From Candidatus Babeliales bacterium (GTDB lineage: Bacteria > Babelota > Babeliae > Babelales > JACPOV01), in the NCBI GenBank assembly GCA_040879965.1, contig JBBDJI010000013.1:367160-431159 (forward strand): a DNA stretch of 64,000 bases. Direction: 5' to 3'. The first letter of the stretch is position 1. Each line of letters starts with the position of its first letter. Positions 3,134 to 46,704 of this stretch are shown here, in pieces. Below the pieces are notes generated by a model. The model did no database searches. It saw only the letters and a program-made list of their open reading frames with translations, and had not been told where the DNA came from. The position numbers and the translations under genes are program-made.

Positions 3134-4204
3134 ATGAAAAAAATTAAAATGCTTTCAACGCTATTCTTTTTGACTCTTTGTTTACATGGAATGGAAAATC
3201 AAGAGATAGTTTCATCGCTCTCTTGCGATCAATCATCCTATAAAAAACCTATCATTAAAGGCAAAAAAATTCAGATTGCTTCAGAAAAAAAATATCTTCC
3301 AGTTTATTTTAAACAACAAAAAACATCTCTTACCTCATTAACTGAATCATTAGATGAAAAAATTATTAATGCCGATATTTCTGATGCTAAAAAATTATTA
3401 TATTATAGCTTAAAATTGCCAATTGATCTTGGCTCATTGGCTCAGGAATATTTATCATACACATTAAATAGACAACAATTTTCGCTTTTTTACAAAAAAA
3501 ATGATTCATCAAATTTAGATGAAAGTTATCTTGATTCTTTAATCTTATTGAATAAAAGTGCAATCGATGCACTATGCCAATGGCGCAAACAAAAAAAGAA
3601 TAAAGTTTTTTTACCCATCAACCAACATAACTATCTCATGATTCCAACGCAGAACAAAATCACCTGCCTTTCGCTGGATAATCATACTGATCAGACGATT
3701 ATTAACGATAAACTTGATACTAATTTTACTAATGTAGATCTTAATCATTTTAAAAATATTGTAATGGTTCAATTATCAGATCGTTTACATATCTATACTT
3801 TTGGTAAAAACCAAGCACTGGATAAAATACGTATTCAAGCCTCTGAAAATAGTGTTATTGAACATGCAAAATTTTTAGATGAAGAACGAATCGTAATCAT
3901 CAGGAAAAAAAATGATGATACATATCTCGATATAATTCTCTTTGATAAAGAAGCATTCAAAATAGAAAAAACATTTGATTTAAAAAAAGAATTGCTTACA
4001 CAAAAATCAGTAAAAAGGGGAATTATTCCACCATGTAAACTCGAATCATTTAATGCTAACGATGTGCTCATAACGTTTCACGAAAAAATAGATGATACAA
4101 CTTCGGTTCTGCTTAATCTTACTGATGGAACAATTGGGTATTATGGTGATACGCCGAAAATCAAAATAGATTATTACACGGATTCAGAGTATAGAATTTT
4201 ATAG
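3134..4204 (+). CDS. hypothetical secreted protein
   Basis: Good SD ('aaggaga') upstream. Signal peptide 'MKKIKMLSTLFFLTLCLHG' is followed by 'ME'. No known domain recognised. Confidence 0.6.
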   Translation: MKKIKMLSTLFFLTLCLHGMENQEIVSSLSCDQSSYKKPIIKGKKIQIASEKKYLPVYFKQQKTSLTSLTESLDEKIINADISDAKKLLYYSLKLPIDLGSLAQEYLSYTLNRQQFSLFYKKNDSSNLDESYLDSLILLNKSAIDALCQWRKQKKNKVFLPINQHNYLMIPTQNKITCLSLDNHTDQTIINDKLDTNFTNVDLNHFKNIVMVQLSDRLHIYTFGKNQALDKIRIQASENSVIEHAKFLDEERIVIIRKKNDDTYLDIILFDKEAFKIEKTFDLKKELLTQKSVKRGIIPPCKLESFNANDVLITFHEKIDDTTSVLLNLTDGTIGYYGDTPKIKIDYYTDSEYRIL

Positions 4205-6368: not shown

Positions 6369-6971
6369 ATGAAAAAAACGCTCTTTTTATTATTCTTTAC
6401 TTCTATAGCAATTCATCAAACATATGGTATGCAATTTTCACTAGAAGATAGATTTCCTAAAGGAACAGCAAGTCAATCTTTTTTTACAAGATATGATGAA
6501 AACGCAAAACAGGAACTAAAAAAAATAATTGAAAAAAATATTTTTTATATAAACAATGAATTCTCTCCAGGAAGAAAAACGCTAAATACTGAAAACATAA
6601 AATCTATTGCTGAAACATTTCCTAAGGAACAGAAGGCAAATCTGGTACTAGCAAAATTTCTAATTTTTCTACCTGATCCAGAAAGTATTTCAGGCAATAG
6701 TATTCTAAAAGCACGCCAAAAAGCCATTAAGAAGTTTGCAGATACTTGCGATTTACAAGAAACTATAGACTTTACTACTGTTTTTGCAACCAAACTCACA
6801 AATGAAGTAAATCATTCAGAAAATAGATCGCATTTTCGCAAATTCTTTAAAGAAAAAGCAGCTCAATTAAAAAGCCGTGGAGACAGAATTAAAAAGTTCT
6901 TGAAGGGGATTGTGCTGTCGCTTGCATTCCAATATTCAAAAAATTACGTTATGTCTTGGTTTAAGAAATAA
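6369..6971 (+). CDS. hypothetical secreted protein with a C-terminal hydrophobic tail
   Basis: Signal peptide 'MKKTLFLLFFTSIAIHQTYG' followed by 'MQ'. C-terminal segment 'GIVLSLAFQYSKNYVMSWFKK'. Confidence 0.6.
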   Translation: MKKTLFLLFFTSIAIHQTYGMQFSLEDRFPKGTASQSFFTRYDENAKQELKKIIEKNIFYINNEFSPGRKTLNTENIKSIAETFPKEQKANLVLAKFLIFLPDPESISGNSILKARQKAIKKFADTCDLQETIDFTTVFATKLTNEVNHSENRSHFRKFFKEKAAQLKSRGDRIKKFLKGIVLSLAFQYSKNYVMSWFKK

Positions 6972-9747: not shown

Positions 9748-9901
9748 TCATCCTACACGTTTCAAATTGAAAATATTTGCTTTGCTCAAATAATCCCTAA
9801 AATCCTTTCTATTTGATAGCCATTTTCATTTTTTGCATTTTTTATTTATAATGGGGTTATGGAGGCTCAATTCTATTGCCTTATATTTAAAGGATAAAAT
9901 A

Positions 9902-19900: not shown

Positions 19901-20547
19901 TCTAATTGTGAATCATTAAAACATTTATAACTTGAACTCGCGTTATCAATTTCTTTAACGATGGTATAATAATCATACTTAAACCATTCCTTTGTTTGTT
20001 TCTCTAAAGAATCGATAAGTTTATTAAGATCTTTACGATCTGATTCAGTTAATTTTTGCGGTACGCCATTTTTAAACAAAATTCTGGCCATTTTTTCTTT
20101 AGTCGAAATTAAATAGCTATTTAAGGTTGATTCTTGAATTTTAAGGCTCACAAATTCTGGCAAATACAGACGATATTTTTCATCTTTTAAACAGCAATTT
20201 CGTAAAATATTTAATGTATGATTTATTTCTTGTTCAATAACCTGCATTTTAGTTGATAACTTATAACCCTCCCTAGAATGTAGATATCGGTAATAATCGT
20301 TTTTTATTTTGTCTTGAAATATTTCTCGTTGCGCAATAAACGATCTATTTTGCGGGATAACACGCATATCACAAGAAAAGCGATTTGATTCTTGTTGCAA
20401 ATGCCGTACCGCAAAGTTATCTATTGAAACAATTGCAGATCTATTGAAAGCATCCGCTGCTTGATAATTAGCAAGTTCTCTTTCCATACACAAAATGGGA
20501 AAAAACAATATAATGTTTAATGATAAGAAAAATTTTGTCGATTTCAT
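16996..20547 (-). CDS. large secreted protein with a C-terminal EndoU-like RNase toxin domain
   Basis: Signal peptide 'MKSTKFFLSLNIILFFPILC|ME', then ~900 aa of helical region and a Lys-rich linker. The C-terminus 'GWHHDVGG...KVKTSTFFPSDWSRTKVHEKVFEAFNYCK...LIGKTNEGIKIKMVFNKSGKIITYYPVF' resembles bacterial EndoU toxin domains. Confidence 0.65.
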   Translation of the reverse strand: MKSTKFFLSLNIILFFPILCMERELANYQAADAFNRSAIVSIDNFAVRHLQQESNRFSCDMRVIPQNRSFIAQREIFQDKIKNDYYRYLHSREGYKLSTKMQVIEQEINHTLNILRNCCLKDEKYRLYLPEFVSLKIQESTLNSYLISTKEKMARILFKNGVPQKLTESDRKDLNKLIDSLEKQTKEWFKYDYYTIVKEIDNASSSYKCFNDSQLEKQLSSSQPLQQITEVMDLCKKDEFQKAAEIINQNKGFWHFVNESRQVHKSFLRKLYLTHFKNKFDEFGIDKKFQKDPLYKTIRKHIIAEQCSLSTVERIKKNNAIPIPDEKMKEFFIYREELYNNLLQTVGITKPSPEVSEFLYNVVLFLDDTQNFHKMAHFCAHGAYRDSYMLEEKDVYDQLFDERGLPKFLDIFNNELLKDINIPANIHFKEHAIERECLFNLARLDVNDEQLKNIVNDGIQCIMKACDTENLKVALAYRSLAQSFVHAIYHQQSDALLKCGNVLQINTNERHIKLQLRLIPIIASLAERIHHSNLVVNEEKKYAEDILLSIDDLYGKVIHQNSVFSENKLQKICNRIEQQNLVGAFKNDGLFINPQETIIARFDIDEQKQFGLLNIIEEEKNALIKCNPIETVEKTFGLDAQCLEYIFLNEQERAIVSDIDNNQVLIEKINTIVTDMQNEAPSILTTTIPSNIGELSLKEYIAYINELQEKIALRRDAFFIGLGSKHRQAINKCINILSKYSEIAGLELLKKAVETTDMIQHPIEATYNLVKGTGQLLHFMGKFAVAYSGDLPLQDLQIQYRKEIDEVLTTLYELPTYQKFSLLINYCADTFVWRGFSTVLVKTKPLLINASNQLLQVGQQVIKVPEQFNLINKLRNLAQKEVRAIEAIEWGQGAVRSVEHGSKEASDIIGKVKDTICKEMDFAPKDIDLSNAHKVAETSENTSQISKMQKAGNSLTRKTVRNKSGNCIDPSKNKYKPKSKVSAKKEIIETPEKTKFSKRAEKQNIKKNKKIAEQPGKKLSKEIEELHSKFDGLEKGYDVFEGKDINFNYEHVCQPDITISGKASGWHHDVGGWFKNQIRRFKGKEIEILSMEKVQHGIYELEWRYMNGKVKTSTFFPSDWSRTKVHEKVFEAFNYCKQKKKLFEFNPQKSNWILIGKTNEGIKIKMVFNKSGKIITYYPVFKG

Positions 20548-20687: not shown

Positions 20688-22106
20688 ATGCGCCATTATT
20701 GCATTATTTTATTGAGTTCTTTTTTTTTCATTTTATACCCAATGGAAGATAAAAAACCCATTTCTTCACTAAAAAAGCTTTGTATTAATAAAATAGTAAG
20801 CTTTTTTGCAACCTTAAATAACATTGAAAAAAATAGATTTTTAAAAGAAAGAAAACTTCCTATAGAACTTGAAAAAACAATTGTTAAAGAATTATATTTT
20901 CAAAATATAAAAACACTTCTTAAACCAATTGCGCTACAGAAATTAAATTATTCTATAAGCACTGCCGCACTACATCCGGCTAGAAATTTATTAGCAATAA
21001 GTATTTATGATAAAAAAACTACCCAATTCAGTGATTTGTTTTTATCTAATTCAAATATTGAGCATTTTGATAATCCACGCTTATTGTTTTTAAACCTTTC
21101 TACTTATCAATACAAATCTATTCTTGATATACAAACTACCAAGAAAATAAAAAAGCTAGAATTTAATCAAGATGGATCATTATTATTAGTTCATGCGGAT
21201 CATAATATTGAGGCATATGATACAAAAAATATATATAAACCTGCCCTTGTATACAAGCATGAAGCTTTACAAAAAATAGATGCGAGTACTCTTCTTGCTT
21301 ATCAAATTATCTTTAGTAAAAGTAATGTCAGTTATATAGCACAATTAGATAATAAATCCTGGAAAGTAAACTTCAATAACTTTGCGATTCCCTTTCAAGA
21401 TATTATTACTAAAATTATTATCAATAATAATGATCTCATTGCATTGGTTGCAAACAAACAACTAACTTTATGGAATATAAAAAAACATTCATACAGAAGA
21501 CTAAATATAGACGATAATATCCATACTATTGCTTTTTCTCCTGATAATCTTTTTTTAATTACCCCACGAAATAATAATATCTTTTTTTATTCATTAACGC
21601 CGAATGAGGATTATGAAATTGGCTATCAAATTGGAAAATGCAATTTTGTGAGCCAAACAACATTATATTCACAAAAAGAATTTTATAATGTCCATACTGA
21701 AAATATAGCTGATAAAATCATACATATTTATGCGATGATATTTCACCCGATCATACCTTATATACTTATTTCAAGCGCAAGCAATCAAACACTTTCTGTT
21801 TTAAATATTAAAACTGGCAAAAAAACCATTATTCCGATTGATAATTTTCTAAAGCAAGAAAACGATTTCATCTCTTCATTACAATTTAATGCGCAAGGCA
21901 ATCGGCTTATTGGTTTTACCAATAAAGAACAAGTTATTATTTTCCCTTTTTATTCTGAAATTTATTGCCTTGAAAATATTTTAGATGGTCTTGCTAATGA
22001 AAAATTAACCGATATTTTTGCAGAGATACATCCTGAAGAGATATGGTCAGGTGCGCCATTTATCGAAATATCTCCAGAAAAAGAAACTATTTGCTCTCTT
22101 CAGTAA
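20688..22106 (+). CDS. signal-peptide protein with an N-terminal SOCS/BC-box-like motif and WD40-like repeats
   Basis: 'MRHYCIILLSSFFFILYP|ME', 'SLKKLCINKI' (S-L-x3-C-x3-I) followed by 'KLPIELEKTIVKELYF'. WD-like blades 'IKKLEFNQDGSLLLVHADHNIEAYD', 'IHTIAFSPDNLFLITP' and 'ISSLQFNAQGNRLIGF'. Confidence 0.6.
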   Translation: MRHYCIILLSSFFFILYPMEDKKPISSLKKLCINKIVSFFATLNNIEKNRFLKERKLPIELEKTIVKELYFQNIKTLLKPIALQKLNYSISTAALHPARNLLAISIYDKKTTQFSDLFLSNSNIEHFDNPRLLFLNLSTYQYKSILDIQTTKKIKKLEFNQDGSLLLVHADHNIEAYDTKNIYKPALVYKHEALQKIDASTLLAYQIIFSKSNVSYIAQLDNKSWKVNFNNFAIPFQDIITKIIINNNDLIALVANKQLTLWNIKKHSYRRLNIDDNIHTIAFSPDNLFLITPRNNNIFFYSLTPNEDYEIGYQIGKCNFVSQTTLYSQKEFYNVHTENIADKIIHIYAMIFHPIIPYILISSASNQTLSVLNIKTGKKTIIPIDNFLKQENDFISSLQFNAQGNRLIGFTNKEQVIIFPFYSEIYCLENILDGLANEKLTDIFAEIHPEEIWSGAPFIEISPEKETICSLQ

Positions 22107-43908: not shown

Positions 43909-46401
43909 TCAATTTTTAAGTCTTTTAATAGGCAATTCATTTTCATCTGTTACAAAAACACCTAGTTCTTCCTTGTTTTGAATCGGCCCTGGCGTTTTTT
44001 TAGTAATTTTAGGCTTTGTTTCTTCAATTTTTCTTTTTCCGCTTTCTTCTTTTTCATTGTTATTACAAGCTGCTACGATATTATTACTATTATGAACGTT
44101 ATTATTATTGTTTGTTCTGCGTTCAATAGTTACTGAAAGTGGTGTTTCGATTGAAAGAAGATTATTATAAGTAGGTCGTTCCCATGGCTGCGTAGGATTA
44201 TAAACTGGCCTTACGCCAACAACAATACCATTTGGCACTATATCAAAAGCTTCATAATTAAAAAAATATTCTACTTTTGCGCCCGAAAAACCCTCTGTAT
44301 TTGCTGTTTGAATATGTTTTTTGCCTTTGATAATAATCTCACTTTCATCTTCATTGAATAATATTTTTTCAATAGGAAAAAAACAAATATTACGTTGCAA
44401 AGTTTTGTCTTGCTTAAAAGTTTTCCTTATCAATGCATCAGCATCAAAATCCCAGCATATCAATTCATTTTTTGGTGTTATACCGATAACACATTTGTTT
44501 TTTGTTCCTATCGCTATTGAAACAAAAGAATACTTTTCGATGCTACAAGTTTTATAATATTGATATTTACCATCTTTATTTTGATAGAGCAAAATATTTT
44601 GTCCTTTATAAATTGCCAAAAACTGTCCATCTTTACTTAATACAACCCCACGAGAAGATCCTATATCATCAGGCAAAGGAATCTCATATAATTTTTTGCC
44701 ATCAATTCTGGTGTCATTAAATCCCCAAAAACTAATTGTTTTTTCTGTCAAAATGATTACTGATTGACCATTCTTATCATGTAAATGTGCTAAATAGGTA
44801 TAATCAGAAATCGGTACACCAACTAGAAATTGGTGGCATTTAACATTATTTTTACTGTTAAATAGATATAATGTTTTATAATCCCCATTATTTCCTGTTG
44901 CTGCTAGATAATCATCATTAAAAAATTTTAACGATCTGCAAGACCTCAAATTATGAATCATTGAGTGTCTTTTACTACCATATTGGCCACTCTTAAACAT
45001 TTGCCATAAATTTTCAGAAAATACTTCTATCATATTCTTTTTTGAACTAAAAGCATAAGATATACCATTTGGGCCACAAGAAACTGTATATGAACTATCT
45101 GACACGCCATAACCTCTGTAATCAGTCCATGTTTGATCAGACTTTATATCGTGCTTTTCCCTATTCTTCATAATTTTTTGATATAGACCAGGGCTTAATT
45201 CATATTGTGCTAAATTATTTTCGCCATTTTTTATTTTATTAACAAGAACTCGAAAAATTATATCTTGAACAGAAGGCAAATTAAAATATTCTGCTAAATA
45301 ACTCATCGATTTCAATTCTTGCATTGAATAATCTATATTATTAGTGTTGATTTTATTTATATAAAAACTTTTTAAATCTTGACTATTATTAAATTTATAC
45401 TCTAACTCTAGAAGATTGATTAATCTGCGAACTAAAACACCTGAAAGGTCTAAATAAATTACTGCATCTGTTTGATTATCAAATAACATATCTTGGATTG
45501 TTTTGCTTTGCATAACTAAATTTTTTGAGCAAGCCAATTTTGTATCATCGCTAGCTATTAAAAACACATTTTCTGATATTAATTCTGTTATTTTTTCAAG
45601 ATCCATATAATTCGCTATATTGCGTATTGTTTCTTGCTCATCTGTAGGCATTTGCGCATAAGATTTAATAAATGTTGTTTTAAGTTGAATTAATTGTTCA
45701 GACTTTTCTGCATTATTTTCAATGCCTTTTATATATGCTTGAAACATGACCAAAAATAGAAAATATTGCCATCGATCAGTATTGATATTCGGTACATAGA
45801 TGGGTTGCGGACTCTGCATCATATTACAAAGAGTTTTACTTTGTAATGCATACTTTGTATGTAATATAAAATTGTTATTATTTTCACCCTGGATGAGAAT
45901 CATTTGCTCAAGAATATTTTGTACATCATTTAATTGAAACTCATTGGCGACATTTTTAAGATAAGTCATATTTTCTGGAGTATAATATTCTTCAGCATAA
46001 TCGAATTCATTTTGATTTTTATAAAAAAGATGATCGGTTTTAAATGAGCCAAAATTTTTTAACTTCTGAGTAGTATTCTTATTTAATTTAATCTTTTGCA
46101 ATTTTTCAATGAAGTTATCTTTAAGCAATTGCTTTTTGCGTTCATCAGCCTCATTGAATGCTTTCTGTTTTTCAAGTAATGAGGCAAAAATATCTAATTT
46201 TTGAGGTGAGTCGATTTCTGGCATTTCAATAGTCTCATTTTTATATTTTTCTGCCATATCAGAAAGAATCTTGTTCGATTTAACCAAATTTTTATCAAAC
46301 GATACTTCTTCATCATATCCGGTAATTATATGCATTGCCTGGATTGGTAGAAAAAAAGCAAAAACTATCGTAATTATAAGAGAATAAAGAAACTTCATCA
46401 T
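43909..46401 (-). CDS. secreted protein with three tandem BTB/Skp1-like modules, a WD40-like beta-propeller and a basic NLS-like tail
   Basis: Leader 'FAFFLPIQA|MH'. Three modules pair an 'S..I..M...P..' block with an 'A.Y..L' block (e.g. 'LIASDDTKLACSKNLVMQSKTIQDML...IYLDLSGVLVRRLINLLE' with 'YLAEYFNLPSVQDIIFRVL'). Propeller-like 'VVLSKDGQFLAIYKGQNILLYQ'. Tail 'GKRKIEETKPKITKK...PIKRLKN'. Confidence 0.6.
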   Translation of the reverse strand: MMKFLYSLIITIVFAFFLPIQAMHIITGYDEEVSFDKNLVKSNKILSDMAEKYKNETIEMPEIDSPQKLDIFASLLEKQKAFNEADERKKQLLKDNFIEKLQKIKLNKNTTQKLKNFGSFKTDHLFYKNQNEFDYAEEYYTPENMTYLKNVANEFQLNDVQNILEQMILIQGENNNNFILHTKYALQSKTLCNMMQSPQPIYVPNINTDRWQYFLFLVMFQAYIKGIENNAEKSEQLIQLKTTFIKSYAQMPTDEQETIRNIANYMDLEKITELISENVFLIASDDTKLACSKNLVMQSKTIQDMLFDNQTDAVIYLDLSGVLVRRLINLLELEYKFNNSQDLKSFYINKINTNNIDYSMQELKSMSYLAEYFNLPSVQDIIFRVLVNKIKNGENNLAQYELSPGLYQKIMKNREKHDIKSDQTWTDYRGYGVSDSSYTVSCGPNGISYAFSSKKNMIEVFSENLWQMFKSGQYGSKRHSMIHNLRSCRSLKFFNDDYLAATGNNGDYKTLYLFNSKNNVKCHQFLVGVPISDYTYLAHLHDKNGQSVIILTEKTISFWGFNDTRIDGKKLYEIPLPDDIGSSRGVVLSKDGQFLAIYKGQNILLYQNKDGKYQYYKTCSIEKYSFVSIAIGTKNKCVIGITPKNELICWDFDADALIRKTFKQDKTLQRNICFFPIEKILFNEDESEIIIKGKKHIQTANTEGFSGAKVEYFFNYEAFDIVPNGIVVGVRPVYNPTQPWERPTYNNLLSIETPLSVTIERRTNNNNNVHNSNNIVAACNNNEKEESGKRKIEETKPKITKKTPGPIQNKEELGVFVTDENELPIKRLKN

Positions 46402-46407
46402 TGTTGC

Positions 46408-46451
46408 CCTAAAATAGAATAAAATTGCAAGTATTTATTTTCTATTTTAGG
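46408..46451 (-). promoter_or_regulatory. 12-bp perfect inverted repeat in the 5' leader of the 830-aa gene
   Basis: cctaaaatagaa (46408-46419) / ttctattttagg (46440-46451). The arm next to the start codon covers the likely SD ('taggg', about 7 nt before the ATG). Confidence 0.35.
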
Positions 46452-46704
46452 CAATAAATTCAAATTGTCAACCAAACTATAGTTTCTTTTCACCCTAAAA
46501 ACGAGCTTAAGCGGGATAATTAGAGGGAAAAGTAGAAGATTATATAGACTTAGGTTTATTGGCAATTCAATTAAGAAATTATTTTAATTAAAATGGGCTT
46601 ATGTTTGCTAAGAAAACAATCAAAAGCCATTTTATATGAAGAAAAAGTATTATTCCAATATTTTCTAATATCTTCTGTTTTTAAAATGATATTAAAAAAT
46701 CACT

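Follow-up and report, generated by a model that had tools for sequence, protein, structure and literature searches.

In this study, we analysed one gene in a 64,000-nucleotide stretch of DNA (hereafter the window) from a Candidatus Babeliales bacterium (assembly GCA_040879965.1, contig JBBDJI010000013.1, positions 367,160 to 431,159), namely the minus-strand open reading frame (ORF) at 43909..46401, and we propose that its 830-residue product is a lineage-specific, Sec-exported host-interaction protein that serves as an adaptor or a decoy in the cullin-RING ubiquitin-ligase system of the host. We assign this reading a probability of roughly 0.45. The mature protein would comprise three degenerate tandem POZ modules of the Skp1/Elongin C type, a WD40-like beta-propeller and a disordered tail that is rich in Asn and Lys. 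The gene had been singled out in an inspection of the same DNA, referred to below as the original prediction, which had claimed a secreted protein with three Skp1/BTB-like modules, a WD40-like region and a tail resembling a nuclear localisation signal (NLS). Most of what it had observed was confirmed, and its interpretation was supported in part.

Similarity of the N-terminal modules to Skp1 and Elongin C

The sequence strings on which the claim of a triple array had been based were all found in the ORF, in the order and with the spacing given: the N-terminal blocks begin at amino acids (aa) 25, 179 and 281, and the C-terminal blocks, which resemble 'AANYLDI', at aa 151, 262 and 369. Modules 1 and 2 pass straight into the next module, and the module length is near that of Elongin C. 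Judging from their sequences, modules 1 and 3 are true repeats; their Smith-Waterman comparison gave a z of 6.6, with none of 500 shuffles attaining the observed score, and no gap is needed to align their first 59 residues.

A reference profile was built from a five-sequence alignment of the human, yeast, Arabidopsis and Dictyostelium Skp1 with human Elongin C. Using hhalign, this profile was aligned with module 3 over 114 columns (SKP1 4-129, P = 6.6e-4) and with module 2 over 87 columns (SKP1 14-114, P = 6.3e-4), with a probability of 27-28% for these two modules. Both alignments are collinear, span the N-terminal block and the 'LAANYLDI' helix and are those that would be expected from a POZ fold: 'A-x-QS-x-T[IL]-x-x-M[LM]' falls on helices 1-2, 'P-[IV]-x-[VL]-P-N-[IV]-N' on strand 3 and 'A-[NE]-Y-[MFL]-[DN]-L' on the 'AANYLDI' helix, the motif of which, 'A-N-Y-[LM]-D-[IL]', is kept in module 2. 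A profile of modules 1 and 3 also matched Skp1 (P = 4e-4), and each Skp1 or Elongin C sequence gave at least a weak positive result with the modules in hhalign. Moreover, a hidden Markov model (HMM) of the five references ranked the ORF first among 5,405 ORF fragments.

These scores were compared with those of shuffled and of real sequences. None of 200 shuffles attained the hhalign score of module 2 or module 3. The module 3 score was likewise attained by none of 125 segments of 110 residues from other proteins of the window (maximum 21.5 versus 24.2 and 27.3) and by two of 399 real ORFs from 36 Babeliales loci, one of which is itself Skp1-like. With 0.006 as the smallest P in the 125 controls, hhalign appears to give calibrated P-values.

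The Skp1 family was also picked independently by Pfam, in which Skp1_POZ (PF03931) was the sole non-propeller match of the protein among 24,736 models. The match lies in module 3 (aa 279-312, E = 0.002, 18.6 bits against a cut-off of 21.9) and covers positions 3-36 of the 62 of the profile; module 3 scanned alone scored 18.0 bits, with E in the range of 0.002-0.003. No module reached the gathering score of Skp1_POZ in the Pfam scan, and modules 1 and 2 had no match to it. The BTB domains of SPOP, KCTD5, BCL6 and PLZF, which stand for the Cul3, T1 and zinc-finger types, did not match the modules in hhalign (P >= 0.13), and no Pfam BTB match, whether classical (PF00651) or T1-type, was found in the protein. 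As far as such comparisons can tell, the likeness to Skp1/Elongin C holds up as weak yet specific to that branch of the BTB/POZ domains, and modules 2 and 3 are probably remote POZ domains of this type. If they are, the POZ type of module 1 follows through its repeat relation with module 3. Of the predicted triple array, two modules show a likeness to Skp1/Elongin C, at sub-threshold scores, and the first has no direct signal.

Export, host context and orphan status

A Sec-type leader had been predicted and is present. The leader, MMKFLYSLIITIVFAFFLPIQA with cleavage before MH, was assigned by sequence inspection and has a basic n-region (MMK), a 15-residue hydrophobic core (mean Kyte-Doolittle value 2.6) and a c-region, PIQA, with a small residue at position -1 before the Met, features that predict Sec-dependent secretion. 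No lipobox Cys was found near the cleavage site and a lipoprotein was rejected for this reason.

The cultured Dependentiae (TM6) live as obligate intracellular parasites in amoebae and flagellates. Chromulinavorax, which replicates in the cytoplasm of its host, carries signal peptides on 44% of its coding sequences, and ORFans predominate in the secretomes of Dependentiae (PMC6561590). [quoted passage not shown]

In a crude scan, Sec-type leaders were found on 20 of the 54 ORFs of the window (about 37%). Among these 20, eight have a Met directly after the predicted leader, usually as 'ME', which is far above the Met background; examples are LYP/MEDK, ILC/MERE and IQA/MHII, in which the slash marks the end of the leader. 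The ORFs recorded with this feature start at 3134, 6369, 9833, 11356, 16996 (minus), 20688, 43909 (minus), 58015 (minus) and 63332 (minus), and it was also seen at L005 (a locus described below), L021 and L022. The Met could be a leftover start codon from acquired genes that were given a leader or, alternatively, could permit dual initiation yielding an exported and a cytoplasmic form.

The original prediction had known of no described bacterial protein with such a triple array on a propeller, and searches of proteins, genomes, metagenomes and viruses found no relative. A word-indexed search of 5.8 billion clusters with the whole protein returned itself alone, and pattern and tblastn scans of GTDB species genomes, JGI metagenomes and IMG/VR with the protein or the module alignment found no relatives. 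An NCBIfam scan gave no match, the window contains no paralogue, and no positional homologue was present at 36 Babeliales rpmE-prfA loci. The protein is a strict orphan.

The C-terminal region

The WD40-like region that had been predicted is probable, and with rather more assurance than the POZ modules. Three propeller models of Pfam matched it (WD40_WDHD1_1st, E = 9e-5; Beta-prop_EML, E = 0.002; Beta-prop_EML_2, E = 0.03), with scores that fall far short of the gathering thresholds, its hhalign similarity to WDR5 was weak (z of about 3.6), and repeated strand patterns of the form 'S-x-D/N-G-x-x-L-A...W/Y/F' were seen by eye, for example VVLSKDGQFLAIYKGQNILLYQ. Blade-like segments thus accompany the sub-threshold matches, but a self-comparison of aa 431-760 detected no significant internal repeat or blades. 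A periplasmic propeller of the TolB/BamB type was considered and rejected, as neither Pfam nor NCBIfam gave a signal for it.

The Asn-rich spacer and the Lys-rich tail were found as predicted, the Asn run beginning at aa 764 and the Lys-rich part at aa 788; the last 70 aa (761-830) contain 14 N, 14 K+R and 10 D+E. The reading of the tail as a bipartite NLS was not supported. Under the rules that were applied, a bipartite signal has the form (K/R)(K/R)-x10-12-(3 of 5 K/R), and a monopartite K(K/R)x(K/R) has to occur above chance. No strict bipartite NLS was found in the tail, in which KR-x10-KKTPG has two of five basic residues where three are required, and the sole K[KR]x[KR] motif of the protein, KRLK at aa 826, compares with a mean of 1.1 in the shuffled protein. 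These results bear on a further explanation, in which the protein is a nucleomodulin that is imported through a bipartite NLS and sequesters F-box/BC-box proteins or cullins in the host nucleus. The Lys-rich tail with KRK...KK and KRLK and the Skp1/Elongin C-like modules would fit such a role; the failed bipartite rule, a lone monopartite motif at chance frequency, a net tail charge of just +4 and the missing F-box-binding helices of the PF01466 type make it very improbable.

Weighing the POZ reading

A number of results weigh against the Skp1/Elongin C reading and, with it, against a role in ubiquitin ligases. None of the Skp1 statistics passed a database-wide or curated threshold. Module 1 alone gave no direct Skp1 signal in hhalign (P = 0.22) and no Pfam match, and module 2 showed no significant similarity to modules 1 or 3, so that its own match to the Skp1/Elongin C profile is the one link between it and them. 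When the three modules were aligned by MAFFT, their profile matched Skp1/Elongin C at P = 0.0014-0.0045; a hand alignment of all three gave P = 1.3e-5 and a probability of 80% (column shuffles: mean 11.1, maximum 17.9), but it was partly guided by Skp1 and is hence secondary. The five reference sequences are not a curated set; all of them score far above the Pfam thresholds, and the human Skp1 is 100% identical to database entries. An exhaustive phmmer search with aa 24-430 against 1.84 billion representatives found no relative and no Skp1 or BTB protein at E <= 0.001 (P0002, the only other match, is a translated tandem repeat in a spurious ORF and not a homologue), and the PDB sequences yielded nothing relevant with either phmmer or hmmsearch using the module profile. 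The protein has no orthologues in which conservation could be tested. In addition, its leader is typical of the genome and no mark of an effector by itself, as about 37% of the window ORFs have one.

The structure predictions, both of low confidence, neither confirmed nor refuted the POZ fold. AlphaFold2 modelled aa 24-430 from the single sequence as all-helical with low confidence (predicted local distance difference test score, pLDDT, 38), and module 3, from an alignment in which modules 1 and 2 formed the other rows, likewise (pLDDT 51); Skp1 sequences were kept out of the alignment as circular. Neither of these low-confidence models contains the beta-strands of the POZ fold, and the pLDDT-51 model of module 3 had no Foldseek match in the PDB at E < 1. 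The Skp1 chains 1p22_B and 1fs1_B appeared only within the noise at E = 5-7 and were not counted as evidence.

It is therefore feasible that the resemblance to Skp1 is fortuitous or convergent, that aa 23-400 consist of novel, mostly helical, lineage-specific repeats, and that the protein is an exported propeller protein unrelated to ubiquitin ligases that binds, for example, a component of the host or of the envelope. Such an explanation is favoured by the sub-threshold nature of every Skp1 signal, by the helical, if unreliable, AlphaFold models, by the empty PDB searches, by BLASTP, which gave a non-significant and misaligned result for module 3 against human SKP1, and by the dominance of ORFans in Dependentiae secretomes (PMC6561590). 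It has to contend with two mutually dissimilar modules that both match the Skp1 family collinearly at P of about 6e-4, with controls from real proteins that almost never attain these scores, with the independent choice of the same family by Pfam and with the helix motif kept in module 2. We consider a fortuitous resemblance somewhat unlikely on balance. An HMM from 49 near-identical metazoan Skp1 sequences did not see the modules and was too narrow; the database search with human SKP1 had yielded only sequences with an identity of 81% or more, mostly of 86-100%.

The extent of the similarity also bears on what the modules might bind. In SCF complexes, a large part of the groove that binds the F-box is built by the C-terminal domain of Skp1 (PF01466), and Elongin C consists of the POZ domain plus the 'LLMAANFLDC' helix. 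In Pfam, PF01466 had no match in the protein at E up to 10, which is a further point against a full Skp1 likeness, and the hhalign alignments of the modules stop at or before SKP1 residue 129. Canonical F-box capture is unlikely because PF01466 is absent from the modules and their extent is like that of Elongin C, and the suggestion that F-box partners are sequestered accordingly loses its canonical basis; the modules would more naturally be expected to touch a cullin or to bind a BC-box-like helix.

Gene and locus

The features of the gene are collected in Table 1. The chance origin of an 830-codon frame in the surrounding DNA, which has a G+C content of about 29%, is implausible; the ORF is therefore a real gene, and a non-coding artefact was ruled out. 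An identical copy of the coding sequence was found in a Logan contig (run SRR27977663) that covers 7,851 bp of the locus at 100% identity and adds no independent variation for the gene. The promoter-like site has the top score in the scanned region; as a class, such sites show no enrichment in this AT-rich DNA. No terminator was found between the gene and the downstream rpmE and prfA. The origin of the locus is Babeliales: release factor 1 beside the gene shares 70% identity with its counterparts in two Babeliales metagenome-assembled genomes (MAGs), and its next approximately 30 best matches are likewise from Babeliales/Dependentiae. The slot upstream of rpmE-prfA varies among Babeliales, and its occupants are unrelated leader-bearing ORFans. 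Directly upstream of the gene lie two tandem paralogues, 46705..47100 (minus) and 47258..47647 (minus), that encode small secreted proteins of 131 and 129 aa, begin with MKFK[LF][QR]YLSLLSIFF... and have no Pfam match.

Table 1. Positions in the window of the gene, its promoter-like site and the parts of its product
Feature	Position	Strand	Remarks
Promoter-like site, sigma-70 type, TTGACA-16 nt-TAAAAT	46444..46471	minus	11/12 matches; ~43 nt upstream of ATG
Complete coding sequence, 830 aa	43909..46401	minus	ATG ATG start; stop 43909-43911
Predicted Sec-type signal peptide, aa 1-22	46336..46401	minus	MMK / FLYSLIITIVFAFFL / PIQA, then MH
Module 1, aa 23-175	45877..46335	minus	Repeat of module 3 with ~30-aa insertion after third helix
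Module 2, aa 176-278	45568..45876	minus	Putative Skp1/Elongin C-like module without first beta-strand; 'PIYVPNIN' and 'IANYMDL'
Module 3, aa 279-400	45202..45567	minus	Putative Skp1/Elongin C-like POZ module
Linker, aa 401-430	45112..45201	minus	Matches nothing; limits set by flanking domains
Probable WD40-like beta-propeller, aa 431-760	44122..45111	minus	~6-7 blades by eye
Asn-rich spacer and Lys-rich, probably disordered tail, aa 761-830	43912..44121	minus	From composition

Related and neighbouring leader-bearing proteins

In another Babeliales MAG, a 473-aa leader-bearing protein (locus L005, JBFXEV010000001.1, 3973..5394, minus) also adjoins rpmE-prfA and has a Skp1-like N-terminal block fused to leucine-rich repeats (LRRs). 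This block gave z = 7.5 against human SKP1, an hhalign P of 5e-5 and a sub-threshold Pfam Skp1_POZ match (E = 0.0098); the repeats were recognised as LRR_8 (E = 5e-7), and two hydrophobic segments are present at the C-terminus. The two proteins come from the same bacterial order and share a Sec-type leader followed by Met and a Skp1-like N-terminal block fused to a repeat domain, and they differ in that the L005 protein has one module, LRRs in place of the propeller and no detectable homology to the modules described above. With its leader, Skp1-like block and LRRs, it indicates that the theme of a POZ domain plus repeats recurs in Babeliales. A protein database search for relatives of its Skp1-like domain, from which an intermediate profile might have been built, found none, and the L005 protein itself was not found there.

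Within the window, the ORF at 20688..22106 (plus) encodes a 472-aa leader-bearing protein in which the leader is followed at once by 'SLKKLCINKI', a string that fits the BC-box consensus [APST]LxxxCxxx[AILV] exactly. About 25 aa further on follows the Cul-box-like 'LPIELEKTIVKELYF' and then a WD40-like propeller, whose Pfam matches, Beta-prop_EML_2 (E = 4e-7) and THOC3 (E = 1e-6) among them, are all sub-threshold. Pfam SOCS_box did not match this product; from its motifs it is possible that it is a WSB-like mimic of SOCS-box proteins. The tandem ORFs 9833..11320 (plus) and 11356..12660 (plus) encode paralogous leader-bearing ORFans (blastp E = 5e-21) that have no Pfam match. Both carry 'P-x-S-[LI]-x-x-[LY]' right after the leader, and 'SLNNLAHKEI' of the second resembles a BC-box of the Vif type.

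These proteins suggest that the POZ modules might pair with the bacterium's own receptors, in a pathogen-encoded adaptor-receptor set in which three modules would carry up to three receptors per molecule. The exact BC-box match of the 20688..22106 protein followed by 'LPIELEKTIVKELYF', the similar short motif of the tandem paralogues and the precedent of the chlorovirus Skp1 A039L with its ankyrin F-box-like partners (PMC7019647) argue for such a set. Its evidence is at the level of motifs, with Pfam SOCS-box and F-box absent; the strict BC-box motif occurs three times in the 17,879 aa of the window ORFs and was noticed post hoc, and the gene and those of the candidate receptors do not lie in one operon. 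We consider this arrangement improbable.

Two other products of the window were observed that have recognisable or nearly recognisable domains. The ORF at 16996..20547 (minus) encodes a leader-bearing, polymorphic-toxin-like protein of 1,183 aa with a C-terminal bacterial EndoU nuclease domain (Pfam E = 8e-15), and the small ORF directly downstream of it, 16242..16994, could be its immunity gene. The leader-bearing 200-aa product of 6369..6971 (plus) matched the eukaryotic VPS15-like helical domain (PF22956) at E = 2e-6, with 26.8 bits against a cut-off of 27, and may be another eukaryote-like candidate for host interaction.

Proposed function

According to the adaptor-or-decoy reading that we prefer, the protein would leave the bacterium through Sec and then, presumably, through the type II-like machinery that is conserved in TM6 (PMC4776705), and would reach the host cytoplasm, in which these bacteria replicate. 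The POZ modules may then dock on the N-terminal domain of a cullin or on BC-box or F-box-like helices, while the propeller would hold a target of host (or bacterial) origin. The protein could serve as a one-polypeptide adaptor, with the POZ modules directed to the cullin and the propeller to the target, or as a decoy. The POZ fold, the propeller, delivery to the host cytoplasm and any binding of a cullin are inferred.

A more far-reaching version, which we consider unlikely, would make it the first bacterial mimic of Skp1/Elongin C, a secreted trivalent POZ scaffold on a propeller. Such a scaffold would cluster several BC-box/F-box receptors or cullins of the host at once, or it would adapt the bacterium's own leader-bearing BC-box-like/WD40 proteins, e.g., the 20688..22106 product, as a substrate-receptor module that plugs into host cullins.

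If the POZ modules are functional, the bacterial mimicry of the ubiquitin system would gain a new component and a multivalent format, and a testable effector candidate would be available for the Dependentiae, a phylum with almost no characterised effector. If the Skp1 resemblance is fortuitous, the protein is one more ORFan in an ORFan-dominated secretome.

Comparison with known systems

Among the intracellular bacteria and giant viruses that infect protists, copies of the receptor end of cullin-RING ligases are known in the form of F-box, U-box and BTB-box proteins. In eukaryotes, BTB plus WD40 is a known layout of Cul3 adaptors, which, like the architecture proposed here, have a POZ-fold domain followed by a beta-propeller; they carry a single T1-type or classical BTB, whereas our protein has no similarity to the T1-type domain of KCTD5 or to classical BTBs. 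Compared with the eukaryotic Skp1 and Elongin C themselves (PF03931), which serve as adaptors in the ligases built on Cul1 and Cul2/5, modules 2 and 3 are collinear with SKP1 4-129; the differences are that the match is sub-threshold, that PF01466 is missing and that the modules occur as three tandem copies fused to a leader and a propeller.

Among bacteria, a close parallel is found in the Parachlamydiaceae, which have F-box families and, in Protochlamydia, the PEX1 family of BTB-box plus LRR effectors (Domman et al. 2014, PMC4209131). PEX1 resembles the architecture proposed for our protein in that an N-terminal eukaryote-like cullin-adaptor domain is joined to interaction repeats in amoeba-associated intracellular bacteria, with a presumed hijack of host ubiquitination (PMC4209131). 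However, the PEX1 proteins form large paralogous families and have a canonical single BTB that is detectable by Pfam, LRRs and type III secretion signals, while the Babeliales protein, from another phylum, is a singleton orphan with a Sec leader, triplicated modules of the putative Skp1/Elongin C type and a probable WD40-like propeller. No homology to the chlamydial BTB-LRR proteins was found at E <= 0.001 among the 1.84 billion representatives, and the protein has no LRR.

Pathogen-encoded adaptors of the Skp1 type are known from chloroviruses, whose genomes contain a true Skp1 with viral receptors as its partners (PMC7019647). This Skp1, A039L of PBCV-1, is a bona fide single-domain protein with clear homology, whereas the protein studied here would be a remote multi-module fusion. 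A large BTB family occurs in Mimivirus (PMC1876218), and F-box, RING and deubiquitinase proteins were reported from Babela, a BTB or Skp1 homologue being unmentioned (PMC4378268).

The literature that was searched contained no description of a bacterial Skp1/Elongin C-like effector. The architecture has more precedent than had been claimed, in the BTB-LRR effectors, the chlorovirus Skp1 and the BTB plus WD40 adaptors. With the eukaryotic BTB adaptors and the chlamydial BTB-LRR effectors, the protein would share the logic of a POZ domain plus substrate-binding repeats in one polypeptide. It would be a further form of the known mimicry of eukaryote-like ubiquitin-ligase adaptors by protist-associated microbes and does not open a new category.

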